Virus record (IMG/VR): IMGVR_UViG_2718218129_000003
Reading direction: 5' to 3' (one strand)
Length of the DNA: 38,372 nucleotides
From: a virus
Taxonomy: Duplodnaviria > Heunggongvirae > Uroviricota > Caudoviricetes
The position numbers and the translations under genes were made by a program. The notes below the pieces were generated by a model. That model was not told the DNA's origin. It made no database searches and saw nothing but the letters and a program-made list of their open reading frames with translations. Numbering within the stretch: the first letter of the stretch is position 1; every line of letters starts with the position of its first letter. Shown here one piece after another: positions 10,778 to 38,372 of this stretch.

Positions 10778-11344
10778 TCAGGGGGATTCATTGCTCTTAT
10801 TTGCCGGAAATTTTCTATAAATTGTGGAAACACCCACATCAAAAATCAGTGCAATACGCTGTCTTGATTCTCCGGCCTCGAGTAAGCGCCCAATCTGTGC
10901 CCACTGTTCGGTGGTCAACTTAGGACGGCGTCCACCTACTCTGCCTTTATCACGAGCTGCAGCCAGCCCCGCCCTGGTACGTTCAACTATCAGTTCGCGT
11001 TCCATTTCTGCCAGGGCCCCCATGACATGAAAAAAGAAACGGCCCATTGGGGTGCTGGTATCAATACTGTCAGTCAGGCTTCGGAAATTCACGCCACGCT
11101 GGCGCAACTCTTCTATCAGCGTAACAAGATGCCGCATACTGCGCCCCAACCTGTCCAGCTTCCAGACGACCAGCGTGTCTCCTGCCGATAGTGTCCTGAG
11201 CAGTTTTTTCAGCCCCGGTCTGTCGGACTTAGTGCCACTGATTTTATCCTCAAAAATTCGCTCACATCCCGCGCAGTTCAGTGCATTACGTTGCAAATCG
11301 GTGTTCTGGTCATTTGTTGACACGCGTACATAGCCAATAAGCAT
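10778..11344 (-). CDS. Site-specific DNA invertase (serine recombinase, Gin/Pin/Cin/Hin family)
   Basis: N-terminus MLIGYVRVSTNDQNTDLQ with the catalytic Ser region, and a C-terminal HTH (GVSTIYRKF). Adjacent to inverted 26-bp crossover sites. Confidence 0.9.
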   Translation of the reverse strand: MLIGYVRVSTNDQNTDLQRNALNCAGCERIFEDKISGTKSDRPGLKKLLRTLSAGDTLVVWKLDRLGRSMRHLVTLIEELRQRGVNFRSLTDSIDTSTPMGRFFFHVMGALAEMERELIVERTRAGLAAARDKGRVGGRRPKLTTEQWAQIGRLLEAGESRQRIALIFDVGVSTIYRKFPANKSNESP

Positions 11345-11371
11345 GATCATCCCCCTGAATAAAAACCGGAG

Positions 11372-11872
11372 ATGATGCCAGTTAGCCGTAATCTCTGCAT
11401 TTTCATAAACGTTGGTTTGGGAGAAGGTTCGGCATTACCCGTTGGTGTGCCTGTTCCGTGGCCTTCTGCAACACCGCCTACTGGCTGGCTGAAATGTAAC
11501 GGTGCGGCTTTTTCTGCTGAAGAATACCCGGAACTGGCAAAGGCTTACCCGACAAATAAATTGCCTGATTTACGCGGTGAGTTTATTCGTGGCTGGGATG
11601 ACGGTCGTTCAGTAGATACTGGTCGCAGCGTTATGTCTGCACAGAGCGCGCGTGTTGGTTATATTAAATTTGATATGGGAATTTATGGTATTCCTGCAGG
11701 TACGGGCTCACTTATTTTGTCCAATGATATCTTAATTACGGGTCATGACAGTAATGGCTCAAGCCTATTGCTGAACAACTCTAATGAGCGGGCAATTGGT
11801 GAAATGTATGTCGTTCCTGCCGATACTCGCCCACGGAATATTGCATTTAACTATATCGTGAGGGCTGCATAA
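11372..11872 (+). CDS. Alternative (currently silent) tail-fibre C-terminal receptor-binding cassette
   Basis: The ORF frame passes through the left crossover site encoding NVGLGEGS, matching LGLGEAAK at the right site in gene H. It has no credible independent start and would fuse to the H constant region after inversion. Confidence 0.6.
   Translation: MMPVSRNLCIFINVGLGEGSALPVGVPVPWPSATPPTGWLKCNGAAFSAEEYPELAKAYPTNKLPDLRGEFIRGWDDGRSVDTGRSVMSAQSARVGYIKFDMGIYGIPAGTGSLILSNDILITGHDSNGSSLLLNNSNERAIGEMYVVPADTRPRNIAFNYIVRAA
11400..11425. repeat. Invertase crossover site (gix/hix-like), left
   Basis: TTTTCATAAACGTTGGTTTGGGAGAA resembles gix/hix sites (AAACC..GGTTT core) and is an inverted copy of the site at 13227..13252. 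Confidence 0.75.
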
Positions 11873-12474
11873 TGGATAACGCTGTATTAAATAGCGAGTT
11901 TATTGCTACAAAGGCGGGAAATATTACCGTCTATAACTATGATGGCGAAACACGGGAATATATTTCCACTTCAAATGAATATCTTGCCATTGGTGTCGGT
12001 ATCCCTGCATATTCCTGTTTAGATGCCCCTGGCACACATAAGGCAGGTTATGCTATCTGCCGTTCGATGGATTTAAACTCATGGGAATATGTGCCAGACC
12101 ATCGCGGTGAAATTGTCTATAACACCGAAACGGGAGACGCCAAAGAAATCACAACTCCGGGTGATTACCCCGAAAAAACAACCACTATCGCCCCGTTAAC
12201 GCCATACGATAAATGGGATGGTGAGAAATGGGTGACGGATACCGAGGCACAGCATAGCGCCGCAGTAGACGCGGCAGAAGCACAACGTCAGTCACTGATT
12301 GATACTGCAATGGCTTCCATTAGTCTGATTCAGTTGAAATTGCAGGCCGGACGGAAACTGACGCAGGCAGAAACAACCCGACTTAACGCCATGCTGGATT
12401 ACATTGACGCGGTGACGGCAACAGATACCAGCACCGCGCCGGATGTCATCTGGCCTGAACTGCCGGAGGCGTAG
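11872..12474 (+). CDS. Tail fibre assembly protein (partner of the silent cassette)
   Basis: 200-aa ORF whose C-terminus (LDYIDAVTATDTSTAPDVIWPELP) is related to the C-terminus of the convergent Tfa at 12446..12889. Confidence 0.7.
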   Translation: MDNAVLNSEFIATKAGNITVYNYDGETREYISTSNEYLAIGVGIPAYSCLDAPGTHKAGYAICRSMDLNSWEYVPDHRGEIVYNTETGDAKEITTPGDYPEKTTTIAPLTPYDKWDGEKWVTDTEAQHSAAVDAAEAQRQSLIDTAMASISLIQLKLQAGRKLTQAETTRLNAMLDYIDAVTATDTSTAPDVIWPELPEA

Positions 12475-12889
12475 GCCATTCAATATCTGGCGCACCGGAA
12501 GTATCGACCAGCTCCAGTGCGTCCAGATAATCCAGCCACAAATTATATTGCGCCAGTTCCTCACCTTTCAGACGACCAATAGCCGCTTTACCAGGCCATT
12601 GTTTACTGTTCATGTGTTCGTTGGCCTGATTAAGCAATAATTGTCTTTCTGATTCTGCCTGTTGAATAAGTTCTTCATGTGATGGTTGAGGTATTTCAGC
12701 CCATGTGGGAAAACCATTTACCCCTGCAACTCGGATTTTCCCTTGTGGCGGTTCCGCCATATATTTTACAGAAATGTTATCAGGAATATCTAATGCATCA
12801 GCGGGCCATGTTCCATTTACTTCATAAGTATTTTTTAAATTAACAGCATAAAATGCATTTTCCGAGGGGGAATAAATATATTGATTCAT
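12446..12889 (-). CDS. G: Tail fibre assembly protein (gpG-like, expressed orientation)
   Basis: 147-aa ORF directly downstream of H with the Tfa C-terminal motif WLDYLDALELVDTSGAPDIEWP. Confidence 0.75.
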   Translation of the reverse strand: MNQYIYSPSENAFYAVNLKNTYEVNGTWPADALDIPDNISVKYMAEPPQGKIRVAGVNGFPTWAEIPQPSHEELIQQAESERQLLLNQANEHMNSKQWPGKAAIGRLKGEELAQYNLWLDYLDALELVDTSGAPDIEWPTPPAVQAR

Positions 12890-12890
12890 A

Positions 12891-14288
12891 TTATCTTCCT
12901 ATTGCGATAATCATAGTTCCATACAAACCATTTCCGGTTGATACTTTTAAGGTTACTGATGTCCTTGTTGTCGTGTACCCCATAAGTTTAAAGGTCGGAG
13001 CAGCCGTTAATGTGCCATCAGACCATAAGGCACTAACAGCAAGTGCACCTGAAGGAAATGCAATAGGGAAATTACCAGTAGTTCCGTTAGTGTCCGCCCC
13101 ATAAACATTCATCGAAAACATTTGGACAATATGACCACTTGGTAACTGAAACCAGTTTTTGCCAGATGGGAATGCAGACATATCTGGTATCTGATTTTCC
13201 CCTGTTCCCACATTTCGTTTTGCCGCTTCTCCCAAACCAAGGTATGTGAGAAGACCAGCTACATCCTTTCCACTCAAATTAGTCAGCGTATTGTCCAGCG
13301 GTTGTTTACCTGCCAGCGCATTAAGCATTGTCGTGGCAAAGTTCGGATCATTCCCCAGTGCCGCCGCCAGTTCGTTCAGTGTATCCAGTGCCGCAGGTGC
13401 AGAACCCACCATTCCTGCAATCGCCGATTTCACAAAAGCCGTAGTGGCAATCTGTGTATTATTGACCGACTGCGCCGCCGTAGGGGCTGTTGGCGTTCCG
13501 GTGAGTGCCGGACTCGACAGCGGCGCTTTCAGTGCCAGCGCATTGTTAATGGTGGTACTGAATTTCGGATCATTGTTAATGGCTACGGCTATTTCTTTCA
13601 GCGTGTCCAGCGTGGCTGGCGCACCATTAATAAGAGCCGTCAGTGCCGCCTGAACAAATGCGGTGGTCGCAATCTGCGTGGTGTTATTCCCCTCCGCTGG
13701 CGTTGGCGCTTTGGGTGTTCCGGTCAATGTCGGGCTTTCTTTGGGTGCATACTGTGAATGCGGGTCCGGTGCGGCAAGATGTTTTGCCATCTTATCATCC
13801 ACGAACACCTTCAGCTCCAGTACCTTGTCATCCACATACTTGCGGGTTGCCAGCACGACGGCAGGGTCGATTTTCAGGGTGATATTGTCCGTGCTGCTGG
13901 TAATCAGCACCATGCGCACGGTCTGGGTGCGCCCGCTGCCTTCAGCCAGTTGCGGCTTATAGCTTTCCGGGCAGTTGCCTACGGCAATCAATGCCCCGGA
14001 CTCATCAAACAGACCCACTTCACGTATCCACCAACCACCCTCATTTTCAGGGATCACCTGTTCAGCAATAATCTGGCTGCTGTTCTGCGGGTCGATATAG
14101 AGCATATTCAGCGCAGCCCGGCGTTTCTCATTTACCAGTGCCGTCTGCTTTGCGTCCGGCGCCGACAATGCTCCGCCGCCATCGCCCACCGCCATATGGG
14201 TAATTTTTAGCGGCACACCTAGCGCGGCGGCGCTGGCAAGTTTCGCCGCGCCAATATCCGTCAGCAGGGTATAAAATTTTGTGCTCAT
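12891..14288 (-). CDS. H: Tail fibre protein (constant N-terminal region plus current variable C-terminus)
   Basis: 465-aa ORF following I. Internal Ala/Thr-rich tandem repeats. Crosses the right crossover site. Confidence 0.85.
   Translation of the reverse strand: MSTKFYTLLTDIGAAKLASAAALGVPLKITHMAVGDGGGALSAPDAKQTALVNEKRRAALNMLYIDPQNSSQIIAEQVIPENEGGWWIREVGLFDESGALIAVGNCPESYKPQLAEGSGRTQTVRMVLITSSTDNITLKIDPAVVLATRKYVDDKVLELKVFVDDKMAKHLAAPDPHSQYAPKESPTLTGTPKAPTPAEGNNTTQIATTAFVQAALTALINGAPATLDTLKEIAVAINNDPKFSTTINNALALKAPLSSPALTGTPTAPTAAQSVNNTQIATTAFVKSAIAGMVGSAPAALDTLNELAAALGNDPNFATTMLNALAGKQPLDNTLTNLSGKDVAGLLTYLGLGEAAKRNVGTGENQIPDMSAFPSGKNWFQLPSGHIVQMFSMNVYGADTNGTTGNFPIAFPSGALAVSALWSDGTLTAAPTFKLMGYTTTRTSVTLKVSTGNGLYGTMIIAIGR
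13227..13252. repeat. Invertase crossover site (gix/hix-like), right, inside gene H
   Basis: TTCTCCCAAACCAAGGTATGTGAGAA. Its first 14 bp are identical to the reverse complement of the left site. Confidence 0.75.
13320..13735. repeat. Tandem direct repeat (two units of about 200 bp) inside tail fibre gene H
   Basis: Encodes two copies of a roughly 69-aa unit (…NNTQIATTAFV…APATLDTL…NDP.F.TT…NALA.K.PL…). Visible at both DNA and protein level. Confidence 0.6.
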
Positions 14289-24497: not shown

Positions 24498-25531
24498 TGG
24501 GAAAGAGTAAGAAGAACCGAGCTGCGGCGACGAAACAGATCCAGCTTAAAAGTCAAACTACAGCCGAAGCATTCAGCTTCGGCGATCCCGTTCCTGTTCT
24601 GGACCGCCGTGAACTGCTGGACTATGTGGAATGCGTACAGATGGACCGTTGGTATGAGCCGCCCGTCAGCTTTGACGGACTGGCGCGCACCTTCCGCGCC
24701 GCCGTGCATCACAGTTCCCCGATTGCAGTAAAGTGCAACATTCTGACCAGTACCTATATCCCTCATCCGCTGCTCAGCCAGCAGGCTTTTTCGCGTTTTG
24801 TGCAGGACTATCTGGTATTTGGTAACGCCTACCTGGAGAAACGCACGAACCGATTCGGTGAAGTTATCGCTCTTGAGCCTGCGCTTGCAAAATACACCCG
24901 ACGCGGATTAGACCTGGATACCTACTGGTTTGTGCAATACGGTATGACAACCCTGCCGTATCAGTTCACGAAAGGCAGCATTTTTCATCTGATGGAACCG
25001 GACATCAACCAGGAGATCTACGGCCTGCCCGGTTATCTTTCTGCCATTCCGTCAGCCCTGCTCAACGAGTCCGCCACGCTGTTCCGCCGCAAGTATTACA
25101 TTAACGGTAGCCATGCAGGCTTCATCATGTATATGACCGATGCCGCGCAGAACCAGGAAGATGTGAACAACCTCCGCAACGCAATGAAAAGCGCCAAAGG
25201 CCCTGGCAACTTCCGCAATCTGTTTATGTACTCGCCTAACGGCAAAAAGGACGGACTTCAGATTATCCCGTTGTCAGAGGTCGCAGCGAAAGATGAGTTT
25301 TTGAATATCAAGAACGTGAGTCGGGATGACATGATGGCAGCACATCGTGTGCCGCCGCAAATGATGGGGATTATGCCGAGTAATGTTGGGGGGTTTGGGG
25401 ATGTGGAGAAAGCCAGCCGCGTCTTTGTTCGCAACGAGTTGATACCTCTGCAGAAGCGCCTTCAGGAATTGAACGACTGGCTTGGAGAAGAAGTCATGCG
25501 TTTTGAAGATTATAATTTAGGTATTGAATGA
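24494..25531 (+). CDS. Q: Portal protein Q
   Basis: 345-aa ORF overlapping the P stop by 4 nt. Confidence 0.9.
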   Translation: MMGKSKKNRAAATKQIQLKSQTTAEAFSFGDPVPVLDRRELLDYVECVQMDRWYEPPVSFDGLARTFRAAVHHSSPIAVKCNILTSTYIPHPLLSQQAFSRFVQDYLVFGNAYLEKRTNRFGEVIALEPALAKYTRRGLDLDTYWFVQYGMTTLPYQFTKGSIFHLMEPDINQEIYGLPGYLSAIPSALLNESATLFRRKYYINGSHAGFIMYMTDAAQNQEDVNNLRNAMKSAKGPGNFRNLFMYSPNGKKDGLQIIPLSEVAAKDEFLNIKNVSRDDMMAAHRVPPQMMGIMPSNVGGFGDVEKASRVFVRNELIPLQKRLQELNDWLGEEVMRFEDYNLGIE

Positions 25532-25600: not shown

Positions 25601-26266
25601 TTAAAGATCCGGATCTACAGGCTCATGATATAGATTTACAGGGTAATGAATAACTTCATAATTCAGTTGAGTAACTGTGTGAACATGCTGGCTATAAAAA
25701 ACCAATGGATTTTTTTGACAAGGAGTAATCGTTATAGATTTACAGGCATGAATTCTTGGTGCGAATTTATCTAAATGCGCCTTCCAGTTGCTCATCATTT
25801 CATTACATTTTCTATTACGAGTATAGATAATCAATCCACCACTTGCGCTGTCTACGGTCCCTGTACTATATCGTTCAGTGAGTTGAGCATACCCTTTAAA
25901 TAAATAACTATATGAAGATGTATGTTTTTTGGCTTCGCCATGCCAAATATAATCCTTTAGTTTTATTGTAATATCACAATGTCCGCGCTGATTATTTTCA
26001 TGAAATGCTTCAATGCCCATATCTTTATTTTTGATATTGGCCAATAAAATTAAAGTAAGCTGATCTTCTGTTAAATCGAAGTTTAACTTATTTGAATTCT
26101 CTTCTATTTCCTTTACAGCAGAATCAAGTTCAATCCTGACAAATTGTTTGAAATTATCGTACGATTGAAGTGCAAATCTAACACGAGTAATAGAAGCATT
26201 AATACGCTGAAGAAAAATATCATTATCAATATCAGCCAAACTCATTGCTGCAGACATTTTTAACAT
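25601..26266 (-). CDS. Hypothetical protein, third gene of an AT-rich three-gene cargo operon
   Basis: 221-aa ORF sharing one nucleotide with the upstream gene. No recognised family. Contains a D-x13-E-x-K pattern (HCDITIKLKDYIWHGEAKK). Confidence 0.6.
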   Translation of the reverse strand: MLKMSAAMSLADIDNDIFLQRINASITRVRFALQSYDNFKQFVRIELDSAVKEIEENSNKLNFDLTEDQLTLILLANIKNKDMGIEAFHENNQRGHCDITIKLKDYIWHGEAKKHTSSYSYLFKGYAQLTERYSTGTVDSASGGLIIYTRNRKCNEMMSNWKAHLDKFAPRIHACKSITITPCQKNPLVFYSQHVHTVTQLNYEVIHYPVNLYHEPVDPDL

Positions 26267-26712
26267 CAGATAATATCCTTTGATTTAGATTCATCTAATG
26301 TAAAAAAAGGAAATACGAATGACTTATAGTCATACATAAGCTCCCCTGTAAATGGGTTTACTAAAGATTGACTGATTTCCGCCTCAATAACTTCCTCTAT
26401 TTCAAGTTCTACAGGGTCATGAAAATCATCAATGAACCAATAATTGAGTTTTAAAAAATCAACCTTTGGGCTACAAAGAATTTGTATGGCCGGATAGATA
26501 ACCTGCTCATACGTTTCTGGCTGTAAAACCTTATTATAACCACCAGCTATATTAAATAAATCCTTATAACTTAAAGCTATATTTGATGATTTTTTAGCCC
26601 TTGCCTCGATTTCATCGTACAAATAGCAAGCTAACGCCCCAATTTCAGGGCGTTCTGCACACATTTCTTTGATGATCTTGGGCATATCACCATCCTTCAT
26701 TGCTGACTCCAA
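26266..26712 (-). CDS. Hypothetical acidic protein, second gene of the cargo operon
   Basis: 148-aa ORF whose start abuts the stop of the 371-aa gene. No recognised family. Confidence 0.6.
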   Translation of the reverse strand: MESAMKDGDMPKIIKEMCAERPEIGALACYLYDEIEARAKKSSNIALSYKDLFNIAGGYNKVLQPETYEQVIYPAIQILCSPKVDFLKLNYWFIDDFHDPVELEIEEVIEAEISQSLVNPFTGELMYDYKSFVFPFFTLDESKSKDII

Positions 26713-27819
26713 TTATAATATCAGCTTTGTGAGGGTTTCGAAATCATCTTTGGATATACATTTACTTAATATAGCATAGTTAACAGGAGAGCAACTACTC
26801 CCTCCTAGATGCCTGCGGAGTGTTCCCGGAATGATAAGCTCTACGTTATCCGCTAATTGCAGTTTTGGATTATTTCTATCAACTCTAATTCCAATACGAT
26901 ACAAACCAATACTGCCTACTGCTTTGATGCCTTCCTTATTAAACAAATCATCACGTAAGTCTTTAGTGGCCACATTTTTCTTTTCTTTATGCGTAGTCCC
27001 CTCATTCGTCAAAAATGACAAATCAAAGACTTTATAGCTTAATTTTGAATAAGGCAATGAATTTTGTTTGAAAATTGGCTCAATTAACGGATAAAAATCT
27101 TTTTCCGATGATTTAAATTCATAACCGACATGATTATACAATTCACGAATAATGTTACTCTTTGCAAAAGTAACATTATCACCAATAATATTACCATTAG
27201 TATCTACCAAAACATGAATTTTATTAGTAACAGAGTCTAATATACAGACATCAAAACATTGTCGCTTTTCTTTTCGCTTTGCAATAATTTCATCAAACTG
27301 CTTGTATTGCGCAAGTGCTGACGGGGGAATTTTTTCTCTTACAACTAATTCTCTGACAGATGAAAAAACAAGTATTGACTGGGTGTTTTGAATAGAATAA
27401 TTAACAAGTTCAGGTTGATTTTTTACAGCATTTTGCAATTGGACATCATCAAGGATCGAATCAACCAATAATGATGGTTGATTCATCAAATTCCATTGAA
27501 AACTAAATCTGTCATTTAGTGTTTTAATTACACTATTATCTACAGTCAAACTAAATATTGCTTTTTCACCATAAACGACCTGACCAAAAATTAGGTCATT
27601 TACGTTTGCCATAATGCCATCAAACTTTTGCCTATCTTTACTTTTAAGATCAATGAGGCTTTCTAGTATTTTTTCGTTTGTTGCTTCACGCCCCCTACCT
27701 GTTGGCAGCCCTAAAGACGCAATAATTGGCCTTGCAACGTTCCATGTGAAACGTTCAGTTAAGGTCAAGATCGACTTTAACTCAGACTCAGAAAGCACTA
27801 CTGGGACACTACCTGTCAT
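26713..27819 (-). CDS. Hypothetical protein, first gene of the cargo operon
   Basis: Start placed at the ATG preceded by AGGTG (the ORF track starts at GTG 27828). About 368 aa, no Walker A motif, no recognised family. Confidence 0.6.
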   Translation of the reverse strand: MTGSVPVVLSESELKSILTLTERFTWNVARPIIASLGLPTGRGREATNEKILESLIDLKSKDRQKFDGIMANVNDLIFGQVVYGEKAIFSLTVDNSVIKTLNDRFSFQWNLMNQPSLLVDSILDDVQLQNAVKNQPELVNYSIQNTQSILVFSSVRELVVREKIPPSALAQYKQFDEIIAKRKEKRQCFDVCILDSVTNKIHVLVDTNGNIIGDNVTFAKSNIIRELYNHVGYEFKSSEKDFYPLIEPIFKQNSLPYSKLSYKVFDLSFLTNEGTTHKEKKNVATKDLRDDLFNKEGIKAVGSIGLYRIGIRVDRNNPKLQLADNVELIIPGTLRRHLGGSSCSPVNYAILSKCISKDDFETLTKLIL

Positions 27820-27978
27820 AACTTGCACCTAGTCATCCAAAAAGCAATAAGAATTTGCTCTTGTCTTAATTTATCCTTCGATACCTAACAAATTACCTCA
27901 ATGTTGAAAAAATTTGCAAGCCATTTGCTTCTAAAAAGCGACCTTACTCAGAGTGTTACAAAACTAAGCGAGCGCGCG

Positions 27979-27997
27979 CTCGTATCCCCGCCACGCC
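27979..27997. other. Candidate cos (cohesive end) site
   Basis: The reverse complement GGCGTGGCGGGGATACGAG matches the first 13 nt of the P2/186 19-nt cohesive end as I recall it (GGCG(A/T)GGCGGGGAAAGCA.). Adjacent palindrome CGAGCGCGCGCTCG. Confidence 0.4.
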
Positions 27998-28549
27998 TGC
28001 CCGCTTTATGCAGTGATTTTCATGCACCTGCATGACATAAGCGAAAGCCCGCCAGTTCTGGGGGGCCTCAGCAAAAACGATCCTCAAACGATCATGCAAT
28101 TTCATGCAGCATAGTCATGCACAGCCAAGAGAAGTGAAAATCCGTATCTGAATGACCACTTAAAAAACGAAATATACGGGTTTACAAACATGGAGGTTCA
28201 CTGTGAGCGAAGAGCGGAAGTTGCCTTAATTAGGTTACATGGGGGACAAATGTTACTAGCATGATTATGCGGGATACTTACAATACCACGCCTTAATTGC
28301 TTTGTTATCCCACCAGAAAGTCATGGAGCCGCAACTGATAAGAAAATTGTTGTAAAAGTGCCAGTTGGTTACTCTGAATTTCTGCTTAGCCAGGAGAGTG
28401 CCTGCGTTGTCAGCGAATGCGTAAGTTGATCCTTCAATGCAGAAATAGTTCAATTTATTAAACAACACTCCTGGCGGGATTAACGCCGCATCTATAATGC
28501 GTGAGAGTGTGCATGCGCAATTTCAGCAAAAAAATTGAAAATAGCGCTA

Positions 28550-29521
28550 CTAACTTCCCTTTATTTTTAGTTCGTTAAAAATATCTTCGATTACCAATCC
28601 ATTTTTAATTAAATGCTGCACAATATTTTCATATTCTTTGAAATTGTCAATATGCAAGCCATGATCTTTTTCTTTAGCAATTCTCGTGATCACATGTACG
28701 CTATCTGTATAATCAATCTTATTTTTAAGAGCATTGAGCAAACTTATACTTGGATTTAAAGTTGAGATTAGTTTACCAAACTCGGTTTGTAACTCTTTGG
28801 ATTGATGAGTATTAATATAATCTTCAATAAAAGCATCAAAATCTCCTTGCAACTCAACTTTAAGGTTTGCTATATCCTTCATAATATTTTCTAACTCAGA
28901 AGAGTATGGCCGACCATGTTTAAAATCGAATAAAAAAAGATTTGCTTTCTCAATACATTCGCAAATATAAAAAACTGTATAAAGGGAATATTTTTGCTTA
29001 ACTTTTAATTTTCCATAGGCGTAGTGAACCAAAAGATGCTTAGCATTAATAACATTTTTATTTTTTGAAAGTTGATTGTTAGTTGCAGGCGGATAAATTA
29101 CCACATCAACATTATCTAAATTTTGAAAAGTTTTTAAAATAAGAGCCTCAACCTTATTCCAATCGAGGCCCCCATTACCACAGCCTAAAGGTGGTATTGA
29201 TATTGATGTAATTTTTTTTTCATCTATAATTTTTGCTAAAGATTCAAGGCCTTGCGAGATAAAATCATATGTTGATTTTTTTCTCCAACTATCTTTAGTG
29301 GGAAAGTTTACAATTATTTTTCCCTTTTCCTCTACAATTAAAACCTGTCCAATTTTCATTGTACCAGTGGCGCATGCTCTCTTATAAACTTCGAAATTAT
29401 AGGGAAAAGTTTCTTTAAAAGCCAAAGCAATACCCTTTCCCATGACTCCTTGGCAGTTTACAGCATTCACAAGAGCTTGCGATGTAGAGTTTAGAAGATT
29501 TCCGCTTGCATACTTAATCAT
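28550..29521 (-). CDS. darG: DarG-like antitoxin (N-terminal macrodomain ADP-ribosyl hydrolase)
   Basis: Macrodomain motifs GNLL…ALVNAVNCQGVMGKGIALAFK…NFPTK…IPPLGCGNGGLDW. Directly downstream of the DarT gene. Confidence 0.8.
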   Translation of the reverse strand: MIKYASGNLLNSTSQALVNAVNCQGVMGKGIALAFKETFPYNFEVYKRACATGTMKIGQVLIVEEKGKIIVNFPTKDSWRKKSTYDFISQGLESLAKIIDEKKITSISIPPLGCGNGGLDWNKVEALILKTFQNLDNVDVVIYPPATNNQLSKNKNVINAKHLLVHYAYGKLKVKQKYSLYTVFYICECIEKANLFLFDFKHGRPYSSELENIMKDIANLKVELQGDFDAFIEDYINTHQSKELQTEFGKLISTLNPSISLLNALKNKIDYTDSVHVITRIAKEKDHGLHIDNFKEYENIVQHLIKNGLVIEDIFNELKIKGS

Positions 29522-29525
29522 AGAA

Positions 29526-30107
29526 TTAGAACATATAAGTGTTGATCGTTATCAATATACTTAATCCTTGTTGTTTTATCAACCCTTCAACATATTTTTT
29601 TTCGTTATCATTTTTGACAAAGATGCAATGGAAATTTTTCGGCTCGACCGTTACACTTGATAAACACTCAGCCATACATACAGATTTGCATTCTGCATTT
29701 TTATAATCCCTTATATTCATTAGCTCCCAGTCAATTTGGGCCATTCCTTGTTCATAATCTAAGAGGTCTATAACAGAACTGGTGGATAATGGATGTTTAG
29801 GGATAACTTTCCAACCATTTTCTTTGGCAAATGCCCGACAAACCGAAATAATACAAAATGATTTTTCCTTATGATCTTTCAGGACTCTTCCATCAAATGG
29901 ATTCTTAGTAAAGAAATGAAAAGGAACCATTGTTTGCAAATTTAATGCTTCGCGACCTGTTATTATTTCACCGTCGGCCACATCAACAAACTCACCTTTT
30001 ACTGATGCACGAGATCTTAATCCTGTATCTAAAATACTAGGTAGATTATCCATACATGTTAAATGATAGAGAAGATACTGATCTTCAATTCTTTTCCTTT
30101 CGCTCAT
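29526..30107 (-). CDS. darT: DarT-like DNA ADP-ribosyltransferase toxin (DUF4433)
   Basis: N-terminal LLYHLTCMDNLPSILDTGL, plus VPFHFF and a C-terminal AEC motif. Tightly linked upstream of the macrodomain gene. Confidence 0.8.
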   Translation of the reverse strand: MSERKRIEDQYLLYHLTCMDNLPSILDTGLRSRASVKGEFVDVADGEIITGREALNLQTMVPFHFFTKNPFDGRVLKDHKEKSFCIISVCRAFAKENGWKVIPKHPLSTSSVIDLLDYEQGMAQIDWELMNIRDYKNAECKSVCMAECLSSVTVEPKNFHCIFVKNDNEKKYVEGLIKQQGLSILITINTYMF

Positions 30108-30574
30108 TTCAACTCATCCTTTCAAATTCGTAAGTCTATTTATAGAACCAAACCTCACTGGCAGTCAAGGTTTTTAAGATTATTCACATTGCCTTCTGCC
30201 TGTCGATCTAATTATTTTCGATTTTTTGGGTATGATTTGGCATTATTGATATACAAGGTAAAACAATTTTTCAGTAGTTTACTGACGCTGAGTGATTACG
30301 ATAGCTAGCTTGGGAAGGAAATGGCCATAGTGCATGTGCTGAACAAAATGAAAAAGGCAGGGACATTCTGGTCTTCCCCATGAGTATGGATTTTCATTGC
30401 ATCGATGGGTATGAGCAACGTCCCCTTGATTAAGGATAGCGTTGCATCGACCCGTTGAACTCACAACACAAATCGTACAATCACTTATCAAAATGGCCGC
30501 CCACCTTACGCCTCGTTTCACTCGCTACCCAAACTAGCCCCCATCAGAATGAATCCTCCTGGGGGCAATGTTTC

Positions 30575-30808
30575 TTAATGCAGCCAGCTGTCGTCCTCCC
30601 ACACCTTCTGCATAATTTTCATCACTTGTTTTCTTTCTTCATCCAGTTGCAGTCCGGTTAGTTCCACACCGTTAGAGCTACCTTTGCGAATGCGAATTAC
30701 CGTTTTGGGATACAGGGGGCGCAGATTGCGGTAAAGCTCGGATTCAAGGGCGTCCAGGGTAGACTGGCTAATCTTCTGCTCTTTATCGATCATTATTTCA
30801 ATGCGCAT
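30575..30808 (-). CDS. DinI-like protein
   Basis: 77-aa product MRIEIMIDKEQ…WEDDSWLH, similar in length and pattern to E. coli DinI (MRIEVTIAK…WESADDWF). GGTGA ribosome-binding site; start 10 nt after the stop of the upstream ORF. Confidence 0.7.
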   Translation of the reverse strand: MRIEIMIDKEQKISQSTLDALESELYRNLRPLYPKTVIRIRKGSSNGVELTGLQLDEERKQVMKIMQKVWEDDSWLH

Positions 30809-30818
30809 AAAAGTCACC

Positions 30819-31007
30819 TCAGCTGATGACATCCATTGAGCGGTTGTATTCGTGGCTTCTGATTTTTGCCATGAGTTCATCTGTCAGTTCAGAAACCCAC
30901 TGCAGAGCCAGCCCTTTCTCTTCATCACTACACTCACTAGCCGCTACAAGCTTAAGAAAAAAATCAATGCGCTGGAGCTTCAAAGACTCCAAAAAATAGT
31001 CCTGCAT
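30819..31007 (-). CDS. Small hypothetical protein, first gene of the LexA-box module
   Basis: 62-aa ORF with a strong AGGAGGA ribosome-binding site, translationally coupled to the DinI-like gene. Confidence 0.5.
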   Translation of the reverse strand: MQDYFLESLKLQRIDFFLKLVAASECSDEEKGLALQWVSELTDELMAKIRSHEYNRSMDVIS

Positions 31008-31049
31008 CTTTCCTCCTATGACACCAAAGCAATACTGTATACATAACCA

Positions 31050-31065
31050 CTGTTTATATTTACAG
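31050..31065. promoter_or_regulatory. LexA (SOS) box
   Basis: CTGTTTATATTTACAG fits the CTGT-N8-ACAG consensus. Lies 43 bp upstream of the 62-aa ORF start in an AT-rich promoter region. Confidence 0.6.
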
Positions 31066-31159
31066 TATATAATAATCTTACTGATGTAAAACGTTTTTTT
31101 ACGTTCATCAGCCTGATATGCCTAGTATTATTAAGAGCACGAATTGTTAACCCGCGTAA

Positions 31160-33574
31160 TTAATACAGATCCCGCCACTTATCATCTTCCTGCAAACGCT
31201 GGTTCCGATAGAAGATACGCAGGCCTGCTCCTGACGGAATACTGCCACCGCGAAGGAGTAAATCGACCTCTTTCTCGCTTCCATCAAATCCTCTGGACTT
31301 CAGTTCATAGACGAGCTGCTGTCGCTGATGATCTGTAATTCGCTGTTTGTAGTCTCTACGCCGTTTCGGTTTCACCAGGCGTAACCTTGCAGCCAGTTCC
31401 CGGCGCTCTTTTTTGTTCATACTGTGCAGGTAATCGTGCAATTCCTTGTCATCCATGCAGGTGATATCCGTTCTGGTATCCCCATCAGCTGATTTGTCTT
31501 TCCCTTGTTGGTACAAATTTTCAGCAAGGGGACAGTTATTGCCACGAGTCCAAGGGGCGCAAGCGCCCTGGTCGGCTGCCGCCTCCTGAACGTCAACGGC
31601 TTTACGAACCATTTTCCACTTCACTGCATGAGTGCAGATCTTGCCCTCTGCAATGGGTGACCAGATGCCATAAATACGAATGCCGTGATCGCCATAGGCG
31701 GTCGGCTCTTCGTTGATTTCATAAGCGGTTCTGATGAGGTGATATTTACGGGGAACCAGTACGCCGCCCTGCGTCATGATGTAGGTGGCAAAACAACCAG
31801 CATCAGCAGCAGCCAGGATGGCATCAAGGCGCGGGTTATCCAGTACCGGCGCACCTGCTTTTTTGTCCCCCTTTTGCCTTACCGCCTGACCAGCCAGCAA
31901 TCGCAGTTCACGGTAAGCCTGACGCCCCGGAATGCCAAAGAAGCGGAATTGCTGAACACGATGCAAAGACGCCCAGGCATTCACGTATTCAGCGTTATCA
32001 CGCAGAGATTTACCCGTTTCCTTGCTGATCTCGCCAGCCAGACCACGCCCGTCAATGTTCTTACTGATGTATTTCGCTATGTAGCTTGTCGGCGTTCCTT
32101 TGCGCGGGTTAATCAGCTCAGACTTAAAGCGCGGCCCCGTGTTATTGCCCAGCTCCTCGCGGTCTTCACGGATAGCAAACTTACGCAACAATGCTGTAAT
32201 GGCGCGGCGGTCTTTTTTGCGCATGAAACACAACAGGTGCCAGTGAACTGTGCCGTCGTGATGCGGCTCAGCCACCCGCACGCCATACCAGCGCAACCCG
32301 GCTTTGTGCATCGCCTTACGAAATGCAGCAAACATACCGACCAGATAATCGCTGCTTTGTCTTACCGTCGCATTTGTCCAGGTCGGGTTGGGCCTGCCGT
32401 TATTTAGCGTGGAATGGAAACGTGACGGACAGGTGATGGTGTAGAAAACGGCGCAGTCACCGCGCATTTCCGCGATAAGCTCCAGACCTTTAACACAGGC
32501 CATCATCTCATTGCGGCGATGCGCAGGGTTGCTGCTGCTGGCGTTTACCACATCCTCCATGTCTAGCGTGTCGCCGTCTTCGTTCACCAGTTCATGAGAA
32601 CGGAAAAACTCCAGCGACTTACGGCGCTGCTCACGTTTATGCAACACGGCTTCATAGCTGACATAGGGAGATGCTTTTTTGCTGACAAGGCAGACAGCAC
32701 GCAACTGCTCTTCCCGCCATTCGCAACGCATCTTCCATAATTTCCGATACCACCAGTCGGCGCACAACATACGCGCCAGCGAACCCGGAATGAGTTCATA
32801 GGGCACGGGTTTACGGCGGTTTCTTTTCCGACGGAGTTGCTCAAACGCAGGCGGGATGACATCCAGACGCAGGGTTTCCGCTGCCACCCTTTCCCATGTA
32901 TTGCGGATTTCTTCTGGCTTAACGTCATCGGTGGCATACAAATCGCCACAAGCGGCATCAAGGCACATACTCATATGCGCAGCTACCAGGGTGGACAGGC
33001 GTTTCACCTGATCCTGACTCATTTCAGGCAGGATCAGCAGGCCGTCCAGCCCTTCATGGCTTGCCATAAAGCGAAAAGATGCAGATAGCTGACTGTCGCG
33101 TACATGCTCCAGTCGTTCCAGACATGGCTTAATCGTCTCACGTAAATAGCGGGAATAAGCCTTTGGCCTGCCCAGGCTGCTGAAGTATTCAATACGTTGC
33201 ATCAGCGGCTTGCTGATATGGGAAGGCTGGGCGTTGACGTCCGCCAGAATGACCATATCCGGATTAAAACGCTGCTGCTCATGCGCCAGCTTTGCCCGAC
33301 TAATGAGCTTATCCTGTTCCATTTCGCGCTGGACAGGATCACGGGATTCATTAAAGAAATAACGCTCCCAGACCTGATCACTCAGCGCCTCACGGCGCAG
33401 CTGTTCCTGCTCGTTATCGGCAGCGTACAGAGTGATCAGGTTTGAAAGCGTAGAAACCGGCGCAACTTCCACCGGGTCCAGATAAGGGTTAATGGCCTTT
33501 TTCGAGCTGTTCCATGAGAACGATGCGGCAGCTTCGTTAAAGCCGCAGCAGTTGTTCATATCGGCATGACTCAT
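31160..33574 (-). CDS. A: Replication initiation endonuclease (P2 gpA-like rolling-circle initiator)
   Basis: 804-aa ORF with the tyrosine motif YIAKYISK typical of rolling-circle Rep proteins. Located at the end of the early operon. Confidence 0.85.
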
Positions 33575-35465: not shown

Positions 35466-35981
35466 TCACAGCAAACCAAATGAAGCACCGAGGCCAGTCA
35501 CGGTATCAACTGCACTCGCCATCGCAGGATTAGCCTGTAAACGGGCCTGCAATGAAACAGCCGCCAGCGCCATCAGTCGTGTTACAGAGTTAATGCTGCT
35601 GATAGCATCACGACGACCGGCACAGGTTTTTACATCGCCAGACACCGCACCTGCAGCAACACGCCCGATCTCTGCGGTTGCACTCATGACGTAATGTGGC
35701 AGTTTCTCTTTTGCCACCTCATTAATCGGTACACATGGCAGACAATGAATCTGTGCCAGAAAACCATCTACCAGCGTTGAATCTTCAGTCAGATCGGTAA
35801 GCAGCCAGATTTCTGGTGCGGTTAATAAATGAGGCTGAGCTGGGTTCAGCTTGTTCCGCAGAATCTGCACATTCATGCCTGCACGTTCTGCCAGTTGCAC
35901 CAGATTGTGGCGCAGTGCAAATGCACGACAGGCTTCATCAAAATGTGGATGTTTGGAAACTTGGTAATCAAACATGGTCAA
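35466..35981 (-). CDS. cII: CII-like transcriptional activator (186 CII family)
   Basis: 171-aa ORF with an HTH region ([16 protein letters not shown]). Second gene of the rightward early operon after the Apl-like gene, as in phage 186. Confidence 0.6.
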
Positions 35982-36007: not shown

Positions 36008-36229
36008 CTAATTAAGGTTTAGATTGCATTCTGAAAGCGCATCAACGGTCATTGCTGCTATGTTGATCATCACTTTTTCGCGTTTTTTATCTTTGCGCAG
36101 ACGGTGACGGATAAGGCGTCCATCAGCCAACATGTCATTGATGGTATCGATGGATAGCCCTGTCAGCTCGCTATAGCGTTCAATAGTCACATGAGGCGTG
36201 GTAAGAGTGATTGAAATGTTAGGTCTCAT
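36008..36229 (-). CDS. Apl/Cox-like small DNA-binding protein (excision and lytic-switch regulator)
   Basis: 73-aa basic protein, first gene divergent from the repressor gene. Confidence 0.5.
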
Positions 36230-36348: not shown

Positions 36349-36924
36349 GTGACCATGAATTTGGAGAAAGGCGGACGAGGCGCCATAGAGCGCATGGTAG
36401 AAGCTTATGGATTCAAGACTCGACAGGCGTTGTGCGATCATTTAGGAATCTCTAAAAGTACACTCGCCACACGCTACATGCGTGACTCATTCCCAGCAGA
36501 ATGGGTAATCCAGTGCGCCCTTGAAACAGGCACCTCGCTTAATTGGCTCACAACCGGGCATGGTTCAAAGCAAACTTCAGGTAATACAAATACTATGGAA
36601 GTTGCTAAATATGTATTATCTGATGGGGCCTTGTGTGAAGACGGTTTTTATATTTTCGATAGAGAATTTCTACCGTCGGCATTCAAGAATCTTTTTGTAA
36701 TCACAGATAATAATTCTGAATTTATTTGTGATAAGGAATTTGATGATATACGTGATGGTAAATGGGTAATAAGTATTGATGGCGAAATAACGATCCGTGA
36801 CATTACTCGTTTACCCGGTGGAAGAATCTTCGTCGAGGGTGGAAACAGAGCCTTTGAATGTAAGATAGAAGACATTGAAATAATTGGTAAAATTATAAGT
36901 TTAACAGTCAAGTATGTTAAATAG
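36349..36924 (+). CDS. cI: CI-type immunity repressor (186 CI-like)
   Basis: 191-aa ORF with an N-terminal HTH (TRQALCDHLGISKSTLATRY) and a C-terminal oligomerisation-type domain. Upstream of int in the same orientation. Confidence 0.7.
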   Translation: MTMNLEKGGRGAIERMVEAYGFKTRQALCDHLGISKSTLATRYMRDSFPAEWVIQCALETGTSLNWLTTGHGSKQTSGNTNTMEVAKYVLSDGALCEDGFYIFDREFLPSAFKNLFVITDNNSEFICDKEFDDIRDGKWVISIDGEITIRDITRLPGGRIFVEGGNRAFECKIEDIEIIGKIISLTVKYVK

Positions 36925-37131: not shown

Positions 37132-37319
37132 CTTTTGCTTTTATATCTGCGCCTAAAATAAAAATGAGCCACAGGTTAACCGCAAAAGTTACATGATCAC
37201 ATAGCAAAAAGAATAGCCTACTTCATTATGGCTTCAGTGAGATGTATGGTCGCAGGATTTCATACATTGACACTGGTTATACATACAGTAAAAATGCTCT
37301 CTATTGGAGGGCATTTTTT

Positions 37320-38372
37320 ATGGCTGTACGAAAACTCACCACAGGAAAATGGCTTTGCGAATGTTACCCCGCCGGACGTAGTGGGCGTCGTGTGCGTAAA
37401 CAATTCGCCACCAAAGGCGAAGCACTGGCTTTTGAGCGTCACACGATGGAAGAAACCGAAGCAAAGCCCTGGCTAGGTGAATCAGTGGATCGTCGAACAC
37501 TGAAAGACGTGGTTGAGCTATGGTTCAAACTACATGGTAAATCACTGACTGCTGGGCAGCATGTCTATGACAAATTGCTGCTGATGGTTGACGCTCTGGG
37601 CAATCCCCTTGCAACTGATCTAACCTCTAAAATGTTTGCCCACTATCGAGATAAACGCCTGACAGGTGAGATCTACTTCAGCGAGAAATGGAAGAAAGGA
37701 GCAAGCCCGGTCACCATTAACCTGGAGCAAAGCTATCTAAGTAGTGTTTTTAGCGAACTATCCCGCCTGGGCGAATGGTCGTATCCGAACCCACTGGAGA
37801 ACATGCGAAAATTCACCATCGCAGAAAAAGAGATGGCATGGCTTACCCATGAGCAGATTGTTGAATTACTGGCTGATTGCAAACGTCAGGACCCAATTCT
37901 GGCACTGGTAGTTAAGATATGCTTAAGCACAGGCGCACGCTGGCGAGAAGCCGTAAATCTTACTCGTTCACAGGTGACCAAATACCGAATTACCTTTGTA
38001 AGAACGAAGGGGAAGAAAAACAGAAGCATCCCTATCAGTAAAGAGCTTTACGAAGAGATCATGGCGCTTGATGGGTTCAATTTCTTCACAGACTGCTATT
38101 TTCAATTTTTATCCGTGATGGAAAAAACGTCTATCGTGCTCCCTCGCGGTCAACTCACACACGTTCTGCGCCATACGTTTGCGGCGCACTTCATGATGTC
38201 GGGTGGAAACATTCTGGCCTTACAAAAAATTCTCGGACACCACGATATAAAAATGACTATGCGTTACGCACATCTGGCACCGGATCATCTGGAAACGGCG
38301 CTCCGTTTCAATCCTCTGGCAACGCTGCCAAGTGGCGACAAAGTGGCGGCAGCGGTTGGCATTACCCCGTAA
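37320..38372 (+). CDS. int: Tyrosine integrase (P2/186 family)
   Basis: Start chosen at MAVRKLTTGKW with a GGAGG ribosome-binding site. C-terminal catalytic region has R…HVLRHTFA…LGHHDIKMTMRYAHL, the R-H-R-Y signature. Stop codon is at the window end. Confidence 0.85.
   Translation: MAVRKLTTGKWLCECYPAGRSGRRVRKQFATKGEALAFERHTMEETEAKPWLGESVDRRTLKDVVELWFKLHGKSLTAGQHVYDKLLLMVDALGNPLATDLTSKMFAHYRDKRLTGEIYFSEKWKKGASPVTINLEQSYLSSVFSELSRLGEWSYPNPLENMRKFTIAEKEMAWLTHEQIVELLADCKRQDPILALVVKICLSTGARWREAVNLTRSQVTKYRITFVRTKGKKNRSIPISKELYEEIMALDGFNFFTDCYFQFLSVMEKTSIVLPRGQLTHVLRHTFAAHFMMSGGNILALQKILGHHDIKMTMRYAHLAPDHLETALRFNPLATLPSGDKVAAAVGITP

Follow-up and report, generated by a model that had tools for sequence, protein, structure and literature searches.

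A tum-like, LexA-controlled SOS module carried on two genes in a Fels-2-type P2/186-like prophage

How a P2/186-like prophage can be inducible by the SOS response despite a repressor that RecA does not cleave, and which of two small genes behind a LexA box would be responsible, are the questions raised by a short region of the viral DNA analysed here (a stretch of 38,372 nucleotides, called the window below). A preliminary description of this region proposed a LexA-controlled module in which the function of Tum, the antirepressor of phage 186, is divided between a 62-amino-acid protein and a DinI-like protein of 77 amino acids, and which may link the SOS response to prophage induction or modulate RecA. 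The analysis indicates, with high confidence, that the module is the SOS operon, equivalent to p95-tum, of a Fels-2-type P2/186-like prophage, in which the 62-residue protein, TumA, is the switch and the DinI-like protein, TumB, is an accessory. A module of this kind is already described, being the DNA-damage trigger of the Fels-2/186 type.

The module is encoded on the minus strand, 3' of replication gene A, and all elements claimed for it were found where the preliminary description had placed them. The features of the region are the following.

33574..31160, minus strand: replication gene A (Pfam Phage_GPA, E 1.7e-127)
31085..31090, minus strand: -35 hexamer TTTACA of the tum promoter (p95-like), read from the sequence, 17 nt upstream of TACTGT
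31062..31067, minus strand: -10 hexamer TACTGT of the tum promoter, inside LexA box 1, as in 186 p95
31048..31067: LexA box 1, a 20-mer, gene strand TACTGTAAATATAAACAGTG, with the core CTGT-N8-ACAG at 31050-31065
31033..31052: LexA box 2, gene strand CAGTGGTTATGTATACAGTA; its 16-nt core and box 1 have one base in common
31012..31017, minus strand: Shine-Dalgarno sequence of tumA, AGGAGG, read from the sequence and kept as AGGAGG(G) in relatives
31007..30819, minus strand: tumA, the 62-aa ORF with an ATG start, homologous to the N-terminal region of 186 Tum; antirepressor
30815..30820, minus strand: Shine-Dalgarno sequence of tumB, GAGGTG, read from the sequence and overlapping the tumA stop codon
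30808..30575, minus strand: tumB, the 77-aa DinI-like ORF (Pfam DinI PF06183)
30107..29526, minus strand: DarT (Pfam and PADLOC, E 2e-36)
29521..28550, minus strand: DarG (Pfam and PADLOC, E 3e-80)

The module thus lies between gene A (33574..31160) and DarTG (30107..28550), as had been proposed, and its agreement with the map of 186 holds as well, since 186 carries tum at the same site after gene A. The order gene A followed by tumA is common to the window, 186, PSP3, Fels-2 and the P2-like prophage of E. coli HS. In the window the spacer from gene A (end at 31160) to tumA (start at 31007) is 152 nt long. The tumA and tumB genes are closely spaced and do not overlap, the gap being 10 nt (TGA ggtgactttt ATG), and in relatives a gap of 9–12 nt and a G-rich Shine-Dalgarno sequence for tumB are kept. 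The translational coupling attributed to the two ORFs is not demonstrable, and tumB is preceded by its own GAGGTG. A hairpin that would hide the Shine-Dalgarno sequence of tumB and so impose coupling was considered and rejected, having a z-score of -0.9 and not being kept in relatives. A search of 29900-31300 against Rfam returned no RNA family.

On the gene strand the promoter and operator read TTTACA-17 nt-TACTGTAAATATAAACAGTGGTTATGTATACAGTA, and TACTGT serves both as -10 hexamer and as left arm of LexA box 1. Promoter p95 of phage 186 is annotated as TTCACA-18-TACTGT with a LexA site over the -10; the TTTACA of the window corresponds to the annotated p95 -35, and the -10 hexamer and its overlap with the LexA site are the same. 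A generic sigma-70 promoter scan did not call the tum promoter because its -10 is poor, with only three of six positions matching, and the promoter was assigned from the 186 annotation together with conservation.

Directly past gene A, positions 31080-31112 can form a hairpin (CUGAUGAACGU...ACGUUUUACAUCAG) of -12.3 kcal/mol (z -3.7). The -35 hexamer of the tum promoter falls in its 3' arm; a clear U-tract is lacking, and conservation in more distant relatives is not obvious. By analogy with the Gifsy prophages (PMC3121763), the hairpin may insulate the SOS promoter against read-through from the early operon.

A single CTGT-N8-ACAG LexA box had been placed in the promoter region of the 62-aa ORF. 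This box is present, as CTGTTTATATTTACAG at 31050-31065 overlapping the -10, and no other perfect CTGT-N8-ACAG occurs in the window. The bare pattern is not significant by itself, with 0.44 occurrences expected in the window and at least one site in 35 of 100 shuffles. The 20-mer at 31048-31067, in contrast, differs from the LexA consensus TACTGTATATATATACAGTA at three positions, is the sole such site in the window and has no equal in any of the 100 shuffles. What had to be revised is the number of boxes, which is two. Box 2 (GTGGTTATGTATACAG, 31050..31035; GTGG-N8-ACAG) has one base in common with box 1, and its left half-site is GTG instead of the canonical CTG. The dual pattern CTG-N10-CAG-N-G-N10-CAG, in which the boxes overlap by one base pair, occurs once in the window against 0.11 expected. 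LexA is predicted to bind this sequence at both boxes, and by sequence and conservation the LexA box overlaps the putative tum promoter.

The two-box arrangement is that of colicin operators of the N, R and E1 type, which also consist of two boxes sharing one base, the distal one with a GTG left half-site. The 46-nt operator region of the window is 86–88% identical to the colicin N and colicin R promoters and has the same two-box layout. In the colicin promoters, however, both boxes are located downstream of a separate -10, whereas in the window box 1 contains the -10, and the controlled genes are unrelated. The dual boxes of colicins bind two LexA dimers, which blocks a lethal untimely expression (PMC2994835). 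By analogy with these operators, two LexA dimers on the overlapping boxes of the tum promoter would be expected to give very tight repression, and such a logic may fit a gene that triggers prophage lysis.

Conservation of the module was followed in related loci from phage records and 40 GTDB species genomes, of genera that include Escherichia, Salmonella, Klebsiella, Citrobacter, Enterobacter, Serratia, Yersinia, Pantoea, Erwinia and Tatumella. The promoter set consists of 49 distinct sequences (48 relatives and the window) from more than 15 genera. Throughout this set the -35 is found as TT[TC]ACA at a fixed distance from box 1, while the spacer and the leader or flanks diverge, and in the relatives the -10 TACTGT is nearly invariant. 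A CTG-N10-CAG box is present in the 49 distinct promoters, 186 and PSP3 included, and is degenerate only at one locus (L050). The dual-box pattern, scored by regular expression, occurs in 28 of 51 loci and is present in most Enterobacteriaceae versions; the second box is missing from 186, PSP3, ESSI-2 and the Pantoea/Erwinia group. Within E. coli, a query of 801 nt spanning the module (window 30400-31200) matches in 1,628 of 5,426 complete genomes.

The downstream gene is less constant. As counted by tblastn, because scoring of ORFs gives too low a number, tumB follows tumA in 27 of the 48 related loci, in three of them truncated or frameshifted, and it is absent from the other 21, ESSI-2 and ESSI2_ev015 among them, which keep tumA and the LexA box. 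Since tumB is absent from these 21 loci and the -35 and box 1 are kept, the conserved core comprises the LexA box and the 62-aa gene, and tumB appears from these comparisons to be optional or dispensable.

TumA belongs to phrog_698 (E 5.9e-38), and no family for the 62-aa protein was found in Pfam or NCBIfam. Pairwise BLASTP gave no alignment of TumA with 186 Tum or with PSP3 TumA, so the homology of TumA to Tum rests on profiles. An alignment of a 30-sequence TumA family was matched to 186 Tum by hhalign with a probability of 95% and E 3.4e-8, covering residues 3-46 on both sides. Residues 1-70 of 186 Tum match phrog_698 (E 6.7e-6), and both the 62-aa protein and 186 Tum match phrog_698, phrog_8554 and phrog_1993 in the same register. 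The two have in common a hydrophobic helix, a Cys-containing turn and the motif x-[LI]-A-[LI]-x-[WL]-[VIL]-[SA]-E-[LI]. The similarity of the 62-aa ORF to Tum, one of the comparisons that had been called for, is supported by these results. PSP3 TumA can hardly be recognised as related to the window protein, its match to the TumA family profile being weak (E 0.0047, probability 7.5%).

The AlphaFold model of TumA is a two-helix hairpin with a pLDDT of 88.6, a confident yet generic fold, and Foldseek found nothing at E <= 0.001 for it among viral structures. An exhaustive search with the TumA profile of 1.84 billion representatives returned only 86 members, all of them short stand-alone proteins, and no fused protein of Tum length was among these matches. 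A protein of 1205 residues with NACHT and HEAT-repeat regions (P0172), which gave nine weak, repeated matches to the TumA profile through the repeat AIDALVKLIADSNVDDxTK, was rejected as a relative and judged to be a false positive of compositional or helical-repeat origin.

The tumA gene is labelled in many phage and genome records as “hypothetical protein” or “levan regulatory (domain) protein”, and some records extend it to 96–98 residues, across its own promoter and LexA boxes. Such labels and extensions look like annotation errors. The value of the present assignment for annotation is that the 62-aa ORF, to which most records give the name “hypothetical protein” or, wrongly, “levan regulatory protein”, should be named TumA antirepressor.

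TumB matches the complete Pfam DinI profile (PF06183, positions 1-63 of 63) with E 6.6e-23 and 81.3 bits at a cut-off of 24.2, as well as positions 71-148 of the 151 in phrog_189. Its sequence identity is 41% with residues 71-145 of 186 Tum (E 3e-24) and 78% with PSP3 TumB, and it matches the structure of DinI (PDB code 1GHH) with E 2.7e-6. A WEDDSW motif at the C-terminus is common to TumB and 186 Tum. The DinI-like character of the 77-aa ORF and that of the C-terminal half of 186 Tum, the latter mentioned in the preliminary description, are thereby both borne out. TumB does not reach the cut-off of the NCBIfam equivalog for chromosomal DinI, NF007893 (42.7 vs 111 bits), and its sequence places it with the DinI-like paralogues of the Tum C-terminal type, apart from the host DinI.

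The function of the module can be judged from E. coli HS, whose P2-like prophage encodes a TumA (ECHS_RS04495) and a TumB that are 100% identical to the proteins of the window. An in-frame deletion of “tum” in this prophage was described in the Phollow preprint (PMC11195241). The deletion primers join ATAGGAGGAAAGATG to TGAGGTGACTTTTATGCGCATTG, the sequences around the start and the stop of the 62-aa ORF; both strings occur once in the window, exactly and at the expected places, and the deletion spares tumB and its Shine-Dalgarno sequence. With mitomycin C, lysis and virion foci are both lost in delta-tum and likewise in lexA(Ind-); in delta-tum the SOS reporter continues to fire (PMC11195241). 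Experiments on the identical module have thus shown that induction needs the TumA ORF and a cleavable LexA. The link between the SOS response and prophage induction is supported in this way, through an identical module, and the deletion and lexA(Ind-) checks that had been proposed for it are in effect published (PMC11195241).

These data also bear on the division of labour between the two proteins. That Tum function is carried by two separate proteins instead of one fused protein stands; that the function itself is split does not, as antirepressor activity belongs to the upstream gene alone according to the literature (PMC3121763) and the HS deletion. A stricter reading would be that both proteins are needed, the antirepressor being truly divided, with TumA working only together with TumB or TumB being the effector. 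The two parts are indeed on one polypeptide in 186, the genes are adjacent with a gap of 9–12 nt in the 27 loci that have both, and an internal GTG start in 186 additionally yields a separate DinI-like part, with the annotation “modulates SOS induction”. The HS deletion, however, takes out only the 62-aa ORF and leaves tumB intact, and induction is still abolished; the upstream gene is the one to which antirepressor activity has been ascribed (PMC3121763); and tumB is missing from the 21 loci that keep tumA and the LexA box and has decayed in three more. As a requirement, this reading is largely refuted, and we consider it very improbable.

The preliminary description had also mentioned modulation of RecA, and the module could on that ground be taken mainly for a host-directed modulator of SOS and RecA, a DinI function borne by a prophage, and not for an induction switch. 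The 77-aa protein is a bona fide member of the DinI family, DinI binds RecA filaments (references within PMC3121763), and some records label TumB “SOS induction modulator”. It is tumA with the LexA box, not tumB, that forms the conserved core, however, and induction in HS depends on tumA (PMC11195241), while the score of TumB falls well short of the DinI equivalog cut-off given above; the probability of this explanation is close to negligible. Modulation of RecA is plausible as a secondary role of TumB alone, which by analogy with DinI probably acts on RecA filaments and tunes the SOS signal. Such a RecA-directed role is weakly grounded, because induction of Gifsy prophages was not measurably changed when their DinI homologues were removed by non-polar deletion (PMC3121763).

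The reading of the module as an induction switch operated by TumA is in accord with what has been reported for its relatives. Tum was noted by Lemire et al. (2011) to resemble an antirepressor fused to DinI, and a stop codon was described as dividing tum in two in Fels-2 and PSP3, where the antirepressor is the product of the upstream gene (PMC3121763). In 186, Tum is an anti-CI factor made from the LexA-regulated promoter p95, and its derepression in the SOS response leads to CI inactivation (PMC7708051). The PSP3 record annotates tumA as “similar to 5' end 186 tum; UV induction of prophage” and tumB as “similar to dinI and 3' end of 186 tum”, and the Fels-2 record refers its DinI-family gene to PSP3 TumB. 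The primary source for the split tum of Fels-2 is reportedly Bunny et al. 2002 (Bunny, Liu and Roth, J Bacteriol 184:6235).

The closest relatives of the module are those of Fels-2 (STM2728 / STM2726.1) and of the HS prophage (ECHS_RS04495 / ECHS_RS04500), which have the same two genes, promoter and dual LexA operator at the same position after gene A. Over the module the DNA of Fels-2 is 96.6% identical to the window. The HS prophage, located at the same ybjL-adjacent site, is 96–98% identical in its DNA. The difference from both lies only in the cargo downstream of tumB, which comprises DarTG and three unknown genes in the window and other genes in HS and Fels-2. PSP3 likewise carries a small upstream gene and a separate DinI-like gene after gene A, behind a LexA box of the form TACTGT-N8-ACAGTA, but differs from the window in having a single box and an intergenic gap of 3 nt.

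Phage 186 is similar to the window in having a promoter repressed by LexA whose box covers a TACTGT -10, in the location of this promoter after gene A and in a 186-type CI. Its Tum begins with an antirepressor module homologous to TumA and ends with a DinI-like one, but unlike in the window the two are fused in a protein of 146 residues, although internal starts also give the DinI-like part alone. In addition, 186 has one LexA box, its next gene is orf97 in place of the defence hotspot, and its CI is only 33% identical. In the more remote dinI-gfoA/gftA modules of the Gifsy prophages, a LexA box drives a DinI homologue and a small antirepressor that acts against a non-cleavable repressor (PMC3121763); there dinI comes first, the antirepressor and repressor are of other families, and the phages are lambdoid.

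The presumed target of TumA is encoded in the window together with the remaining components of the lysis-lysogeny switch.

36355..36924, plus strand: cI, 186-type immunity repressor (Phage_CI_repr, E 2.8e-33; Phage_CI_C, E 2.7e-27)
36229..36008: Apl/Cox-like gene (phrog_575), flanking cI
35981..35466: CII, near cI

Phage_CI_repr and Phage_CI_C are the only Pfam families matched by the CI protein, which is 33% identical to 186 CI (E 7e-38) and identical to HS CI at 189 of 189 residues. The window also contains an integrase, and the 186-type CI/Apl/CII switch is thus complete. From the Pfam architecture and the example of 186, CI would have no self-cleavage activity, and by analogy with 186 it would be the target of TumA. 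Direct binding of CI has been reported for 186 Tum only (Shearwin 1998, as cited in PMC3121763 and PMC7708051), and on this precedent TumA is likely to bind CI directly. Taken with the promoter, the homologies and the map position, the switch supports the identification made in the preliminary description, namely a tum-like LexA-controlled SOS module whose counterparts of 186 Tum are on two genes. The module explains how P2/186-like prophages of this type are SOS-inducible even though their repressor is not cleavable by RecA.

The sequence of events proposed is as follows. In an undamaged lysogen LexA would occupy the two overlapping boxes, covering the -10 and the start region and keeping the promoter shut. 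DNA damage would activate RecA, LexA would cleave itself and the tum promoter would fire. TumA, a putative helical hairpin, would then bind the non-cleavable 186-type CI and free the lytic promoter, so that Apl, CII and the replication genes could be expressed and lytic growth could follow. TumB would be an accessory that acts on RecA filaments and tunes the SOS signal, and the switch should work without it.

Beyond the Fels-2 and 186 precedents, the refinements offered here are small, a colicin-type dual LexA operator and an optional DinI-like gene, and otherwise little is new. It is conceivable, though in our estimate short of an even chance, that the tum promoter of the Fels-2 type acquired a colicin-style double LexA operator and that TumB provides an optional feedback on RecA filaments, shaping the threshold of induction. 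If so, the double operator would make these prophages high-threshold, late responders to SOS with near-zero spontaneous induction, and threshold shaping by TumB would explain its repeated loss. Neither the operator acquisition nor the TumB feedback was found stated in the literature read, Bunny et al. 2002 aside.

Downstream of the module, homology to HS and to most phages breaks off two bases beyond the stop codon of tumB, at 30577, and returns at the portal gene; for HS it resumes at 25440. P2-like phages have a variable defence hotspot between gpA and gpQ (PMC9122126), which in the window is the region 25601-30576, from tumB to the portal gene Q; tumB, the last conserved gene before it, marks its exact left border. 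DarTG has an apparent promoter of its own, TTGACT-18-TATAAA at about 30170..30141 on the minus strand, and nothing therefore suggests that it belongs to the SOS operon. Only 8 of 5,426 complete E. coli genomes contain the full spacer between tumB and DarT. Within this spacer a stretch of about 77 nt (30411-30487) has about 86% identity to transposase-annotated sequences in about 600 E. coli genomes and is probably an IS remnant that marks the arrival of the cargo. Three further ORFs of the hotspot abut each other in the same orientation.

27828..26713, minus strand: ORF of 371 aa (phrog_12777)
26712..26266, minus strand: ORF of 148 aa (phrog_11490)
26266..25601, minus strand: ORF of 221 aa (phrog_9664)

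Their PHROGs are all of unknown function, and Pfam and PADLOC gave no match for the three proteins; located beside DarTG, they are a candidate for an uncharacterised defence system.

The tail-fibre region at 10778-14288 is another segment in which the window differs from the HS prophage.

10778..11350: Hin/Gin-type serine invertase (Resolvase and HTH_7)
11372-12474, opposite strand: alternative C-terminus of the tail fibre (Collar domain) and a tail-fibre assembly gene
14288..12446: expressed fibre and assembly genes, faced by the genes at 11372-12474

The whole of 10778-14288 resembles the invertible switches for host range of the Mu G / P1 C type. At its left end (1-2783) the window consists of host DNA, grxA-ybjM-ybjL, which is 99.4% identical to E. 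coli HS, and at its right end (37242-38372) it stops inside the prophage integrase, so that nearly the whole prophage is covered, at the site of the P2-like prophage of HS.
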